Below, piece after piece: positions 32,413 to 37,123 of a DNA stretch of 64,000 bases. The stretch is from a plasmid: sequence record NZ_CP012903.1. One strand, 5' to 3'. The notes beneath the pieces were generated by a model. The model made no database searches, had not been told where the DNA came from, and saw nothing but the letters and a program-made list of their open reading frames with translations. Position 1 is the stretch's first letter. Each line of letters opens with the position of its first letter. The position numbers were made by a program, and so were the translations under genes.

Positions 32413-34181
32413 TCACTTTTGTTGCCATTCCTTTACAACAGCTCCCCAATCGACAGTTCTCTCGACCAATTTCCCATCAGCATACTTTCTTGTCCAAACA
32501 TCCCAGAAGTCAGGGTCATCAGAATGGGGTTGCTGATCTTTCGTCAAATTTTTCATTTTAACCAGGACAGGAAGCTCAGATGCCCAGCCCATCAGTATTG
32601 CATGTTGGGATGGCAGTGAAGGCAACTCACGGAGTAATCCTCGCAAATTATCAGGTACCATTTTATGAACTTGCTCCTGATCTTTGTCATTACTAATTCG
32701 ATGCAGAAGAAAAGTATTACATTGAGATAAAACTGTAGGTGATAATTCTGATGGTCGTTGCGAGGAAACCACCATCCCAAGACCAAATTTTCTGCCTTCT
32801 CGTGCAATTTTCTCAAACACTTGGCAGCAAACAGCTGCGACATCCTGATTTTCAGAGTCATCACGATACCGTTTAATAAATGTATGTGCTTCTTCAGCTA
32901 CAAGTACCGTAGGTAAAGATTTATTATATAGTCTTCTATAGCGTTGCAATGATTCAAAAATAATCCTTGAAATCACAGCAGTAACAATGTGAGTAATTTC
33001 GCTTGGAACTAGAGATAGATCTATTATAGAAATACAACTGTTATCATCTCTTGAACAATCGGTACCAAGATATTTCTCTAACCATTTAGCTAAGTCAATC
33101 CGATTATCAGCATCATTAGTAACAGATCTCATCCTTGTATCTGAGAGCATGGTGCGTATTCTGGCAACCAAATATTCAACATATTGTTCACTGCCATTTT
33201 CTTGAGCAAGAGCTTCTAAATAGGCAACCAGGTTATTACCATCAAATGGTAACGGTATATCTTCATTCTTTGGTAGTAACTCTTTCTCAAACCCTCCGAA
33301 CTCTCTAAATGCAGAGGTAACACTCTCGATAATGCTATCTATTTCAGGCACGGTCGCTTGCATGGTTGCGTACTGTACATTCCTATCTTGTCTATATTTA
33401 GACATTATTGTGATTACATTCGTTAAGTTGTTATTTCCAAGTTTATCTCTGTATCCTTCAAAGCTTTCAATCCATTTACCCATTATCTCGTTAAAGCCTT
33501 TTGCAGGCCCCCAAGCTCCAAAGGGTTTCCCTGAACTTTTATCATGTTTTAAGGTTATGAGAACATTCCCTAGAAAACGTTTTATTTCTATATTTGAGGT
33601 TGTTTCAAGTTCAAAATCTTCGTTTCTCATTGCCCTTAGAGAACGCTTTAGTAAAGGAAGTTGGGCTTTAGGACTCGCTTGCGTAAATGATGCCCATTCC
33701 GAGCTATTCCAAAACCAAGATGGCACTTGGAGTTGATGCTCATTTTCCCCAGCTTCGACTTTAAAAATTCTGCCTTTAAATTTTGTAGTTGGTCCCAAAG
33801 CACGTACATACTCGCCATTGGGGTCTAATATAATAAATCTGGCGTTTGGTTTTACTTCTGACTCCATTGCAGCTTCGAGTGACCATTGGATTAATCCTGC
33901 GACAGAACAAGACTTACCACTACCAGTATTACCAAGTACTGCTATATGACGACCAAATAATCTATCAGGGTCTACGGCTACATTAGCATTGTTAGCAAGT
34001 GGACTTTGCCCAATAACTATTCGTCTATTATCACCAGACTCGACAATTGATCTAAGCTGTAAATCTGTTGGTAGTAAAATAGCTGAACCAATAGAAGGAA
34101 ATGATTCAGAGCCGCGTTGAAATTTAAAATAATCAGTACCATCTTTGGAAAAGCGTTTAAGAGTTCCGACTGGATTTAAAC
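32413..34181 (-). pseudogene. herA: herA C-terminal part (HerA/FtsK-like ATPase of a SIR2-HerA defence pair), separated from its N-terminus by an IS911-like element
   Basis: Walker A GNTGSGKS, ILDPNGEY, Walker B VLVAEEAH and a SQRPSEL motif. The first 21 codons of ORF 32413..34245 are IS-derived. Confidence 0.75.
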
Positions 34182-34189
34182 TGAAGTGG

Positions 34190-34975
34190 TCAACTAATAT
34201 TGGCCACTCTATTAGACTGTTTGTAAAACAGTCGCTCAGATTCATTTGGGGTCAATCCCCCGTTATACCAGTGGGGTCTGATGCCACTGTAATAGCCTGT
34301 GATATAAGCGATAATTCTACACTCTGCTTCTTTCAAGCTTTCATAACCGATTGAAGGCATCCATTCATGTTTTAAACTTCTAAAAAATCGCTCCATTGGA
34401 CTATTGTCCCAACAGTTACCTCGTCGGCTCAGACTTTGAGTGATTTGATAACGCCATAATCGGTGACGATACTCAAGGCTAGTATAATGGCTCCCTTGGT
34501 CACTATGAAACATCAGCCCTTTTGGGTGCCCCCGCATTTCCCAAGCCATTTGCAAGGCTTTTAATGTCAACCCTGTGTCGGGGGACGTTGATAGAGCCCA
34601 ACCAACGGGTTTCCGGGCAAAAAGGTCTAACACGACAGCCAGATAAGCCCACCGTTTTCCTGTCCAAATATACGTCACATCGCCGCACCATACTTGATTG
34701 GGCGCTGTGACAGCAAATTGGCGGTCGAGTAAATTTGGGATGTCGATATGTTCTTTACTTCCGCGTTTATACCGATGCTTCACCTGTTGGCAACTTGTAA
34801 TCCCAAGTTCTTTCATTAAATTACCTACAAGATAACGGCTCATTTTCACACCATATTGAGTCGCCACTATCGTGGCAATAGTCCTTGCGCCAGCAGAGCC
34901 GCCACTTAAATTCCAGGCATCTTTGACTAAGCTTCGTTTAATCGCTCGTACGCCGTCAGGTAAGGCATTTTTCAT
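34190..34975 (-). CDS. IS3-family (IS911-like) transposase OrfB
   Basis: DDE integrase core (...VWCGDVTYI...[11 protein letters not shown]...[11 protein letters not shown]...). Confidence 0.8.
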
Positions 34976-35064
34976 TCGATGATGCCAGTGACGATAGCTG
35001 CTGCGATGACGTTCAAAAAGTTGGCAAAGTGTTGTGACGGGGTAATGCGCTCTGAGTTTGTCGA

Positions 35065-35364
35065 TTATCGCGAATCCTTCAGTGAGTCCGACATTAAGAG
35101 CGCCGTAGCCTTTTTTAGGATTTCGTTTTCCATTTCAAGGCGTTGTATCTTTTTTTTCATCTCACGAAGTTCAATCTGTTCTGGCGTAAGCGGGAGCCCT
35201 GTTGGTGTTTTGCCTTGTCGTTCTAATCTCAGTTTTTTAACCCAGCGATTAAGTGCGGCAAGGCTAACGCCCATAGCCTGAGCGGCTTTCGCCACGGAGT
35301 AATGATGGTCAACGACCATTTTAGCAGCTTCGAGTTTAAACTCTGCTGAATATTGCTTAACCAT
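35065..35364 (-). CDS. IS911-like transposase OrfA
   Basis: ...[42 protein letters not shown]...[18 protein letters not shown]. Confidence 0.8.
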
Positions 35365-35437
35365 GTGCTCACCTGTGATGTTATTGAGGTAAGAATATCA
35401 CCTCTAGTCAGGTGGCCAAATTAACTATGCCACTTCA

Positions 35438-35735
35438 AACTTATTTTTTTTCGAGGAAATGGTAGGTTTACTAGACCAAAATCTTGAATATCTCTTTGTT
35501 TAGGATAAGGTGAATGCTCAACTGCAAGCCACTCTATTTGCCCAACTAAGTAACCATTATCACATGAGACTAATACATAGCTGTTTACTCTAGGAAAATT
35601 TCTAGGTGTGCCTGCATTCAAAGCGACAGCATCAGGTGAATCGATATCTAATAGTGCTCTAATTTCATTGGGTGAAACAAAATCTACAGTACCTACCCTG
35701 AGTTGCTCACCTTGTTCAATGGGAAATGAGTTCAT
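35438..35735 (-). pseudogene. herA: herA N-terminal part (HAS-barrel-like N-domain, about 97 codons), overlapping the SIR2 stop by 4 nt
   Basis: MNSFPIEQGEQLRVGTVDFVSPNEIRALLD...GYLVGQIEWLAVE... The frame continues into native sequence at 34181 once the IS and one GTT copy are removed. Confidence 0.65.
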
Positions 35736-37123
35736 TCGGAATCCCCACTATTATTTGAGGTAGTTGCACGATACAAACCTCTTGACTTCAATAGCTCCGC
35801 CATACGAATTGATGATCTGTCTATCGCGGCTTTAGGAAGATAAAAATCTACTAATTTCTTTATATCTCCAAAGTGATCACCAAGCAATAAAGATATTTGA
35901 GCTTTTCTTCCACTATCGTTTATAAAACGCATGATTCTACCAAGTGGATCACCGTATGCAATTATTACTATATGCGTTGAGGGTATTGTCAACATGTCAA
36001 TAATAACCCGATTTATATGCTCATCGCCAAAACTATAACCATATGTTACCAAGGTGCTATTAGGACGACATGTTGCAGATGCTAAATCCCTAAATAGCTC
36101 AACATAAGGATATTCAGATGTTTCACGGTCTTTAACTGAATTTGGATAAATCATTAATTGTTGATAATTTGCAGTTCCGGTAGTTTCCACCTGTAAAAAG
36201 GGTTCAACCGAACTGGCTCCAAATGGCAATCCAAAACGCCTTATAGCCCCTTCAGTAGCATACCAGTCCAATGAACCATGTAATTTAGTAAATCGCGCCA
36301 CACCTTCCAAATATCTTGGCTCACCCCGAATCCCTGGTGGGTTGTAATGATAATCCACTTCTAACCGAGAAGATCTAAAAATTGGTGCTATAGTACCGAC
36401 AAATCTGTCAATTAAACGAAGACCTGCTATTTCAGCGCCCGTTTCAATTATCCTGTCGTAATTTGTCGTAAAAATATGTAATCGATCCCTAGTTGCTGTT
36501 CGACTTGAAAAACTCATCAAAAAACTTACTAAATAATTAAATGTTTCTGTTTTTAAATCGTTGTTTGCATCACGAATTAATTTTTCACCATAACTAACTG
36601 AGTCTGAAAATAATTTCAGACACCTTGTTAGCTCATTATTTAACTCTACTAACTCACTTTTTAAATTTCGATATGAGGGAGCACCTGGTGGAGATGGTGG
36701 AACCGGTAGGTTTTGTACCGTTAAAATCTCTAGTCCTTTAATCAACTCATTAATTGAACGAATCTGATCTTCAATATTACCCTTTCCCCTTCCTGAGGCG
36801 TCTGCTGTTTTAGCTACATAACTGTCTATTTCAGCCTTACAAACTTTGAGATCTTCAATCCATCCCATACCTTGAGGTTTGGTGCCGGTCGCTGACTCTT
36901 GGATAGCCGAACTAAGGCCGGCGCCAATAAGTATATTTAAGTGTTCAGACTGAAAAAGTGCAGTTAACCAAGGTTCTACTCTTGAACGCAAAAAGTCAGG
37001 AGTGATTTTATCTTCTGGTTTTGCCCATGCGCAGTGTCCAACGACTTTAAATGCACCAACTTCGCTGTGTGGGTCCAACTGAACCGGAGACTGGTCATCG
37101 CCAAGCTTTAAATATTGACTCAA
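35732..37123 (-). CDS. SIR2-like domain protein (SIR2_2 family, 463 aa), partner of HerA in the SIR2-HerA anti-phage system
   Basis: LNILIGAGLS (GAGxS), FTTNYDRIIE (TNYD) and KLHGSLDW (HG) motifs are typical of defence-associated SIR2. It is operonic with herA. Confidence 0.75.
   Translation of the reverse strand: MSQYLKLGDDQSPVQLDPHSEVGAFKVVGHCAWAKPEDKITPDFLRSRVEPWLTALFQSEHLNILIGAGLSSAIQESATGTKPQGMGWIEDLKVCKAEIDSYVAKTADASGRGKGNIEDQIRSINELIKGLEILTVQNLPVPPSPPGAPSYRNLKSELVELNNELTRCLKLFSDSVSYGEKLIRDANNDLKTETFNYLVSFLMSFSSRTATRDRLHIFTTNYDRIIETGAEIAGLRLIDRFVGTIAPIFRSSRLEVDYHYNPPGIRGEPRYLEGVARFTKLHGSLDWYATEGAIRRFGLPFGASSVEPFLQVETTGTANYQQLMIYPNSVKDRETSEYPYVELFRDLASATCRPNSTLVTYGYSFGDEHINRVIIDMLTIPSTHIVIIAYGDPLGRIMRFINDSGRKAQISLLLGDHFGDIKKLVDFYLPKAAIDRSSIRMAELLKSRGLYRATTSNNSGDSE

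Follow-up and report, generated by a model that had tools for sequence, protein, structure and literature searches.

The 64,000-nucleotide stretch of plasmid DNA analysed here (the window; record NZ_CP012903.1) carries a SIR2-HerA operon as the sole cargo of a Tn3-family transposon, and this operon has been split in recent times by a copy of an IS3-family insertion sequence (IS), very probably with loss of the defence function. The herA gene is not intact, as the IS lies after codon 99; sir2 is intact. The insertion is real but is ordinary mobile-element wear and tear, and every component is already known. The features are listed in Table 1.

Table 1. Features of the SIR2-HerA locus, the inserted IS and the surrounding transposons, in window coordinates
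Feature	Position	Strand	Details
Left terminal inverted repeat, SIR2-HerA transposon	17257-17294	+	38 bp; next 71 bases are the transposon left end
AGGGA duplications of nested element	17370-17374 and 32323-32327		5 bp
Nested second Tn3-family element	17375-32322		About 14.9 kb; separates transposon left end from herA
Inverted repeats of nested element	17375-17412 and 32285-32322		38 bp each
herA 3' fragment	32413-34181	-	Residues 100-687: barrel remainder, RecA-like ATPase, helical bundle, arm
Target-site duplication, second copy	34179-34181		AAC (+) / GTT (-)
IS3-family insertion sequence, IS911 relative	34182-35437	-	1256 bp
orfB of IS	34975-34190	-	Frame open from 35134, across slippery heptamer
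A AAA AAG slippery site of IS	35116-35110	-	In phase
orfA of IS	35364-35065	-	
Target-site duplication copy	35438-35440		AAC (+) / GTT (-); single copy in pKL53-L empty site
herA 5' fragment	35441-35735	-	Native residues 1-99/100; aligns with N-terminal beta-barrel region of 8WIV
sir2	35732-37123	-	Intact, 463 aa, SIR2-family NADase gene; product identical to WP_000085085.1 and to the pKL53-L protein
tnpR, serine resolvase of carrier transposon	37200-37781	-	WP_001196201.1; Pfam Resolvase E 3.6e-39
tnpA, Tn3-family transposase	37941-40949	+	1002 aa; NF033527 1124.6 bits; DDE_Tnp_Tn3 and DUF4158
Right terminal inverted repeat, SIR2-HerA transposon	40945-40982	-	38 bp, GGGGTTCAAGGTCC...CGCTAAG

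The two genes are adjacent and co-directional, in a single operon arrangement, and the herA ATG (35735) shares a 4-nt overlap with the sir2 stop (ATGA, 35732-35735). This overlap had been noted in a preliminary description of the locus, as had the open reading frame of a SIR2_2 protein with GAGxS, TNYD and HG motifs; both observations are confirmed. The motifs read GAGLS, TNYD and HG, the last two aligned with those of the solved E. coli Sir2 (8J4U). The SIR2 product matches PADLOC model PDLC04079 (E 2.4e-155) and Pfam SIR2_2 (32.3 bits, gathering score 24.5). Repaired HerA, i.e. the protein read after removal of the IS, matches PADLOC model PDLC04098 (E 2.3e-245, model positions 4-685 of 686) and Pfam DUF87/HerA (81 bits, above the gathering score); only after repair are the beta-barrel, the Walker A and B ATPase and the arm all present. 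Its Walker A, Walker B and SQRPS motifs line up with Paenibacillus HerA (8WIV), and both proteins match chains of solved SIR2-HerA complexes (8J4U, 8WLD, 8YHX). The PADLOC, Pfam and solved-complex matches support the earlier assignment to a described family, and the PADLOC check that had been proposed assigns the pair as SIR2 and HerA, not as members of unrelated families.

Which type of SIR2-HerA system is this? Thresholds of the NCBIfam models are not reached: the SIR2_antiphage model NF042942 gives 119.5 bits where 500 are required, and the HerA_antiphage models NF042943 and NF042944 give 226.4 and 187.7 bits where the thresholds are 850 and 800. Because the scores are far below these equivalog cut-offs, the operon represents a diverged SIR2-HerA subtype; judged by sequence, the locus is a homologue of the NCBIfam SIR2-HerA models but another subtype. 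Placement among types I-III (PMC13434337) was attempted, and the text of that paper holds no accessions by which to place the operon. No paper was retrieved when the literature was searched in full text for the four RefSeq protein accessions, hence none on this allele. We infer that the subtype has anti-phage activity. HerA-activated NAD+ depletion protects against phage in other subtypes (PMC11472057, PMC11514289, PMC13434337). Against such activity count the low NCBIfam scores and a 2026 survey in which only four of eight E. coli Sir2-HerA clusters were active on its phage panel (PMC13434337).

The coordinates and length of the IS and its GTT duplication, as first described, are confirmed, as is the downstream ATPase body with Walker A (GNTGSGKS), Walker B (VLVAEEAH) and SQRPS motifs. 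A continuous HerA of about 690 aa had been predicted upon deletion of the IS and one GTT. In silico removal of the IS and one AAC indeed yields a single 687-aa open reading frame in a 3452-bp operon, and its product is WP_001084040.1 (687 aa). The 5' piece had been taken for the HerA N-domain; its position and overlap stand, but it is not the whole domain, as the break is inside the beta-barrel and aligns to approximately residue 93 of that of Paenibacillus HerA (8WIV). An uninterrupted allele, which was to be sought in related isolates, exists in public plasmids, e.g. pKL53-L, where the empty site consists of GGATTTAAAC joined to TTATTTTT with one AAC. The repaired operon shows 0 nucleotide differences from the intact pKL53-L operon and is 100% nucleotide-identical to intact operons of many enterobacterial plasmids. 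The insertion event is recent, because apart from the IS the interrupted operon does not differ from intact copies. It is known from a single assembly, that of the window: the same IS junction was found neither in PLSDB (no place covering at least 80% of the query) nor in E. coli complete genomes, and the exact junction pattern was absent from species-representative genomes.

The IS has, at both arms, the ends TGAAGTGG...TTGGCCAC, imperfect terminal inverted repeats closing TG...CA. Its transposase scores 262.9 bits with NF033516 (cut-off 160), and its proteins contain rve and HTH_Tnp_1 domains. 'IS911-like' was a fair label, as the element shares with IS911, a member of the IS3 group of the IS3 family, a length of about 1.25 kb, the TGAAGTGG termini, the 3-bp target duplication and an orfA/orfB pair with an A AAA AAG -1 frameshift in LKKA context, and the two align from end to end. 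Over this full length, however, nucleotide identity to IS911-annotated elements is only 68.9%, below the level taken for an IS911 isoform (roughly at least 95%), so the IS is distinct; PGAP annotation gives it no specific name. Where did it come from? Among plasmid matches, close copies (89-100% identical) are found only in Providencia plasmids, and the copy in P. rettgeri pPrY2001 is 100% identical and flanked by a 3-bp duplication, ATT. An exact scan of species-representative genomes with the IS end gave nothing, which leaves the host range to be read from the plasmid matches. The IS looks active, because the A AAA AAG site is in phase, orfB is open and an identical copy elsewhere has its own 3-bp duplication. 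A copy of this Providencia-associated element jumped into herA after codon 99 and produced the 3-bp duplication there.

The carrier has 38-bp repeats of the GGGG...TAAG type, a DDE TnpA and a serine resolvase. That the operon is transposon cargo, as the preliminary description had it, is confirmed by a complete 7517-bp Tn3-like element in the IncX3 plasmid pEncl-922cz, with 38-bp inverted repeats and a GTACC duplication; sir2-herA is all that this transposon of about 7.5 kb carries besides its transposition genes. Window positions 17257-17365 equal the left end of the intact pEncl-922cz copy at 103 of 109 positions, and identity to a backbone region of pT-OXA-181 starts beside the right inverted repeat. 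The outer flanks in the window are TACTC and AATTA, without a 5-bp duplication. The left end is displaced from herA by the nested element, and the uninterrupted pEncl-922cz copy has one AGGGA only. The left inverted repeat was also sought directly after the herA 3' end, but the repeat of GGGG...TAAG type present there (32285-32322) is in the wrong orientation and is an end of the nested element. The latter carries a resolvase gene, ParDE-type toxin-antitoxin genes, a frameshifted tnpA, IS26, a ferritin-like gene and IS5, together with a quinone oxidoreductase gene that a further IS3-family element interrupts. This second IS (25954-27588) had no match by megablast against PLSDB. The host plasmid is IncT-like, of the pT-OXA-181/Rts1 type. 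It had been called a multiresistance plasmid; resistance is present, but within the window its breadth is limited to catA1 and mer operons.

How would the insertion abolish function? In this SIR2-HerA anti-phage operon, sir2 is followed by herA and translationally coupled to it. Intact systems act through a HerA hexamer that docks on the SIR2 ring via the N-terminal beta-barrel and thereby switches on the SIR2 NADase; upon infection, NAD+ depletion, along with HerA ATPase and nuclease activities, aborts phage growth. In Paenibacillus, the HerA beta-barrel comprises aa 1-132 and brackets the SIR2 alpha1 helix, interface mutations at F39, Y60, I100 and Q110 disrupt assembly, and SIR2 on its own has minimal NADase activity (PMC11472057). 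In Staphylococcus aureus, truncation of the HerA and Sir2 N-termini together abolishes binding and NADase activity (PMC11514289). Because the break falls within the SIR2-docking barrel, the system in the window is almost certainly non-functional: with the barrel split, neither HerA fragment should be able both to hexamerise and to dock, and hence SIR2 would be left as an inactive orphan and the defence lost. The earlier proposal of an IS-inactivated defence locus is thus supported, with loss of function as the deduced part.

Fragments of HerA might nevertheless be made. The 5' frame continues into the IS as far as a stop at 35421 and thus encodes 104 aa, with ...ISLKWHS at the C-terminus, and an ATG at 34245 within the IS opens an in-frame 610-aa reading frame (a 22-aa foreign leader plus HerA 100-687), from which a residual HerA ATPase protein could be produced. 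This ATG is preceded about 10 nt upstream by a purine-rich GGGGGA, and the two pieces share their strand with sir2 and with the genes of the IS, which makes read-through transcription possible. Could the two pieces reassemble, or the C-terminal piece act alone, and retain partial function? This is very unlikely, as the break is inside the beta-barrel and not between domains, with interface residues on both sides, and N-terminal truncation or interface mutation ends SIR2 binding and NADase activity in two studied systems (PMC11514289, PMC11472057). A promoter and terminator scan of 32200-38000 gave no more sites than shuffled sequence, which adds nothing in favour of fragment expression and is otherwise silent on it. 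It is scarcely credible that the insertion was created by misassembly, with an IS copy located elsewhere in the genome collapsed into herA. The junction is, it is true, absent from every other public record searched, but the IS ends are precise, the interrupted frame is restored perfectly and the 3-bp duplication is exactly as made by the same IS in pPrY2001; misassembly does not yield such features. As the identical pPrY2001 copy also carries a 3-bp duplication, the insertion is not a chance resemblance.

A different question is whether inactivation was selected, an abortive-infection SIR2-HerA system being costly or self-triggering on a conjugative plasmid or in the host. Independent lesions are consistent with this: in the sister plasmid pT-OXA-181, ISEcp1-blaOXA-181 interrupts sir2, IS1A lies in herA of the IncI/K plasmid pZ0117EC0148-2, and two IncHI2A plasmids have candidate 1-bp deletions in herA. 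In addition, type III Sir2-HerA reacts to an SSB-like phage protein and DNA ends (PMC13434337), signals that conjugation could conceivably mimic. Yet the 1-bp deletions sit in homopolymer runs and may be sequencing errors, and most copies of the operon are intact: of the 23 listed records whose allele is at least 99% identical, 20 have the uninterrupted 3452-bp form. Insertions into the plasmid are tolerated only within accessory DNA, and the second IS3-family insertion (relative to pT-OXA-181) is in an unrelated cargo gene, that of the quinone oxidoreductase; because of this other insertion, general IS traffic suffices and selection need not be invoked. It is therefore improbable that selection drove the inactivation, and equally doubtful that the herA and sir2 knock-outs of the Tn3-borne system, with or without the possible IncHI2A frameshifts, reflect counter-selection, although, if true, this would mean that the transfer of plasmids and the immunity they carry are in conflict.

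Beyond annotation, the significance of a recent IS insertion with loss of defence is small. Where a tool of the DefenseFinder or PADLOC kind reports the system on this plasmid, it should be counted as pseudogenised rather than active, and the 'two hypothetical ORFs' of the Tn3-like transposon of 2018 can be named as the SIR2-HerA pair. The restorable herA allele and the sister plasmid cut in sir2 constitute a natural isogenic set, with which one could assess what abortive-infection systems carried on plasmids cost and what they bring.

A 'SIR2+HerA' anti-phage system was reportedly described by Gao et al. in 2020. In PLSDB, the operon occurs in 200 plasmids, 170 of which contain 80% or more of it at a single place; the hosts are Citrobacter, Escherichia, Klebsiella, Enterobacter and Salmonella, and Tn3-family tnpR/tnpA adjoin the operon in all cases inspected. 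The window locus shares with known systems (E. coli Nezha, 8J4U/8SU9; Paenibacillus sp. 453MF, 8WLD; SaSir2-HerA) the two-gene sir2-herA operon, a SIR2_2-type NADase with TNYD and HG, and a HerA with N-terminal beta-barrel, Walker A/B RecA-like ATPase and C-terminal arm. It differs in that herA is split, and the similarity to the solved proteins is limited: HMMER E ranges only from 1e-22 to 1e-48, and the alignments cover part of the length.

Two plasmid relatives complete the comparison. The NDM-4 IncX3 plasmids pEncl-922cz and pEncl-44578cz carry the 7517-bp 'Tn3-like transposon', whose cargo was named 'two hypothetical proteins' in 2018 (Paskova et al., 2018, PMC6048247). The window copy has the same 38-bp inverted repeats, divergent tnpR and tnpA, and both cargo genes, with an operon about 92% nucleotide-identical; unlike the pEncl-922cz transposon, it contains the 15-kb nested Tn3-family element and the IS in herA, and has no matching 5-bp outer duplication. 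In the IncT plasmid pT-OXA-181 of Citrobacter freundii (NC_020123), backbone and accessory regions match most of the window at 99.9-100% identity, including the transposon, the nested element and an IS5 with an identical nonsense codon. There, however, herA is intact and sir2 is the gene that is cut, neither IS3-family insertion is present, and the backbone beside the right end of the transposon is another segment.

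The herA gene of the plasmid's SIR2-HerA anti-phage operon is split by a 1256-bp insertion sequence, and the preliminary description of this locus is correct in both observation and interpretation, with minor refinements only. The sir2 product carries GAGLS, TNYD and HG motifs, and GNTGSGKS, VLVAEEAH and SQRPS are all present in HerA. The herA start ATG shares ATGA with the sir2 stop, as had been noted from the overlap. AAC (GTT on the coding strand) flanks the insert on either side (34179-34181 and 35438-35440), and the insert ends are imperfect inverted repeats, with TGAAGTGG followed by TTGGCCAC at positions 19-26 in both arms. 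Removal of the insert and one AAC joins the flanks as a single open reading frame of 687 aa, where about 690 had been proposed.

Coordinates of features at the split operon and in the surrounding transposons
Feature	Position	Strand	Basis or remark
sir2, 463-aa ORF	35732-37123	minus	ORF map and raw sequence
herA 5' fragment, 104-aa ORF	start 35735	minus	ORF map and raw sequence
IS ORF, 99 aa	35364-35065	minus	ORF map
IS ORF, 261 aa	34975-34190	minus	ORF map
herA 3' fragment, 610-aa ORF	ends 32413	minus	ORF map
Inserted segment (IS), 1256 bp	34182-35437		raw sequence
Serine resolvase gene	37200-37781		adjoins sir2
Tn3-family tnpA, divergent from resolvase gene	37941-40949		profile and domain matches
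Right 38-bp IR	40945-40982		at end of tnpA
Left IR of carrier and next 71 bases	17257-17365		match to pEncl-922cz copy
Nested Tn3-family element, ~14.9 kb	17375-32322		between carrier left end and herA
Second IS3-family element, orfA 163 aa	27517-27026
Second IS3-family element, orfB 315 aa	26933-25986
Second IS3-family element, terminal inverted repeats	~25947-25987 and 27555-27595

The repaired 3452-bp operon has 0 differences from the uninterrupted operon of the E. coli plasmid pKL53-L, where the empty target lies between ...GGATTTAAAC and TTATTTTTTTT and AAC occurs once only. Judged by sequence, the insertion in herA is real and recent. The inserted element belongs to the IS3 family (NF033516, 263 bits vs a cut-off of 160; rve and HTH_Tnp_1 domains), and has an A AAA AAG heptamer in phase within orfA (LKKA, 35116-35110), with the orfB frame open across it. 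It aligns with IS911 over its full length at 68.9% identity. The designation 'IS911-like' is therefore apt, but on this alignment the element is a relative of IS911 and not IS911 itself. Close copies (89-100% identical) are found in Providencia plasmids only. The Providencia rettgeri plasmid pPrY2001 has the 100% identical copy in its mobH/traI region, flanked by a separate 3-bp duplication, ATT; thus the element is mobile and generates 3-bp duplications. The herA/IS junction itself was not found in any record searched.

Is the pair a SIR2-HerA system? PADLOC profiles PDLC04079 (SIR2, E 2.4e-155) and PDLC04098 (HerA, E 2.3e-245, profile positions 4-685 of 686) support this strongly, as do Pfam SIR2_2 and DUF87 (HerA central domain), both over gathering scores. 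Among solved structures, HerA matches the HerA chains of E. coli Nezha (8J4U) and Paenibacillus (8WIV/8WLD), and the alignment pairs its Walker A, Walker B and SQRPS motifs with theirs. SIR2 matches the Sir2 chains in 8J4U, 8YHX and 8W9L, where the TNYD and HG motifs likewise align. The NCBIfam 'anti-phage' equivalog models match the pair with scores far under their cut-offs; the pair is therefore a diverged subtype, and its RefSeq names are accordingly generic: 'SIR2 family protein' (WP_000085085.1) and, for the repaired HerA, 'ATP-binding protein' (WP_001084040.1).

In Paenibacillus, the HerA N-terminal beta-barrel comprises residues 1-132, the alpha1 helix of SIR2 is held in a clamp formed by two neighbouring barrels, interface mutations at F39, Y60, I100 and Q110 abolish assembly, and SIR2 alone has minimal NADase, all activities being turned on upon complex formation (PMC11472057). 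In the S. aureus system, where the barrel is inserted in the ring of Sir2, binding and NADase are abolished when HerA and Sir2 are truncated at their N-termini simultaneously (PMC11514289). The break (between …RKKISL and NPVG…) corresponds by HMMER alignment to about residue 93 of the Paenibacillus barrel, and so falls within this domain rather than at its border. The N-terminal product consists of HerA 1-100 plus KWHS. For the 3' part, the only possible start is an ATG within the IS (34245), giving 22 foreign residues before HerA 100-687. With the barrel broken and the C-terminal product dependent on this ATG, function is expected to be lost and sir2 to be an inactive orphan; the fragments are unlikely to retain any function.

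The operon had also been described as transposon cargo, and this holds: tnpR and tnpA adjoin sir2, and the IncX3 plasmid pEncl-922cz has the complete 7517-bp carrier (7108-14624) with 38-bp IRs, a GTACC duplication and sir2-herA as sole cargo. Paskova et al. (2018, PMC6048247) reported the same element, calling it a Tn3-like transposon and its cargo 'two ORFs encoding hypothetical proteins'. The G+C content of the cargo (32413-37123) is 38.8%, vs 49.5% for the tnpR-tnpA module and 47.5% for the backbone, which points to a foreign origin. The outer flanks of the carrier (TACTC vs AATTA) do not match; thus either the ends do not stem from a single simple insertion event, or a rearrangement of the plasmid followed. 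A matching 5-bp duplication is likewise absent in the IncT sister plasmid pT-OXA-181 of Citrobacter freundii. Beyond the right IR lies a ParA/ParB/PsiA region here (40983 onward) and the traG region in pT-OXA-181 (16812 onward), both segments being 100% identical elsewhere between the two plasmids. The differing right-hand backbone and unmatched flanks suggest inversion or transposon-mediated rearrangement.

Inside the carrier, the nested element has 38-bp IRs (GGGGTCCGCTTGG...; 36/38 positions identical) and an AGGGA duplication on each side, AGGGA being single in the uninterrupted carrier copy of pEncl-922cz. It carries a resolvase, ParDE-type toxin-antitoxin genes, a quinone oxidoreductase gene, IS26, a ferritin-like gene and IS5; its tnpA is frameshifted (two CDSs in the pT-OXA-181 annotation). 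The IS5 copy (30972-32166) has a TAA nonsense codon in its transposase (after …VEVIEPF, vs …EPFYPKAG…), common to this plasmid and pT-OXA-181; the IS5 found at this place in pPROV046-PER is intact. The 4-mers flanking IS5 (TTAA, ATAG) differ, so that no target duplication is visible.

Identity with pT-OXA-181 is 99.9-100% over 10724-25953, 27589-34182 and 35434-64000. A Tn21/TnAs3-like region occupies 1-12015 and contains two mer operons, IS1 (IS1B), catA1 and 38-bp IRs (4235-4272 and 11978-12015), which in related plasmids are occupied by IS4321/IS5075-type elements. This is a resistance plasmid, as proposed, but within the window 'multi' refers to catA1 and mercury resistance only.

How did herA come to be interrupted? 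Counter-selection against the operon is possible, and lesions do occur in other copies. ISEcp1-blaOXA-181 cuts sir2 in pT-OXA-181 (5-bp overlap at window 36538-36542), and IS1A lies within the 3' part of herA in pZ0117EC0148-2. In two IncHI2A plasmids, pCTX-M_SCLZS19 and pATCC43845, a homopolymer run of herA is short by one base (T8 reduced to T7 at codon 98 in one, A5 to A4 at codon 238 in the other), through either a true frameshift or a sequencing error. Both are annotated with sir2 and no herA. The codon 98 deletion and the IS insertion described here are only a few bases apart. Counter-selection is not needed, since a second IS3-family element, unrelated to that in herA and absent from pT-OXA-181, has entered the nested element (~25954-27588), splitting the NAD(P)H-quinone oxidoreductase gene (fragments 25597-25965 and 27550-28239). 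A megablast of this second element against PLSDB gave no match. The herA insertion is therefore sufficiently explained by ordinary IS traffic in the host.

The operon is present in 200 PLSDB plasmids, mainly of Citrobacter, Escherichia, Klebsiella, Enterobacter and Salmonella, with at least 80% of it in one place in 170. By best place, 27 carry the allele at identity of at least 99%, 88 are at 90-95% and 85 at 80-90%. Intact alleles of both genes are already in RefSeq, and what is specific here is another IS-inactivated copy. A literature search found no paper linking Tn3-family elements with SIR2-HerA; that the 'hypothetical' cargo of the 2018 transposon is a SIR2-HerA pair is a small annotation point. 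The finding is overall ordinary. SIR2-HerA was reportedly described by Gao in 2020, and Nezha is a described system of this kind; types I-III are on record (PMC13434337). All components at this locus come from described families: SIR2-HerA, IS3/IS911-like, Tn3-family and the IncT backbone.
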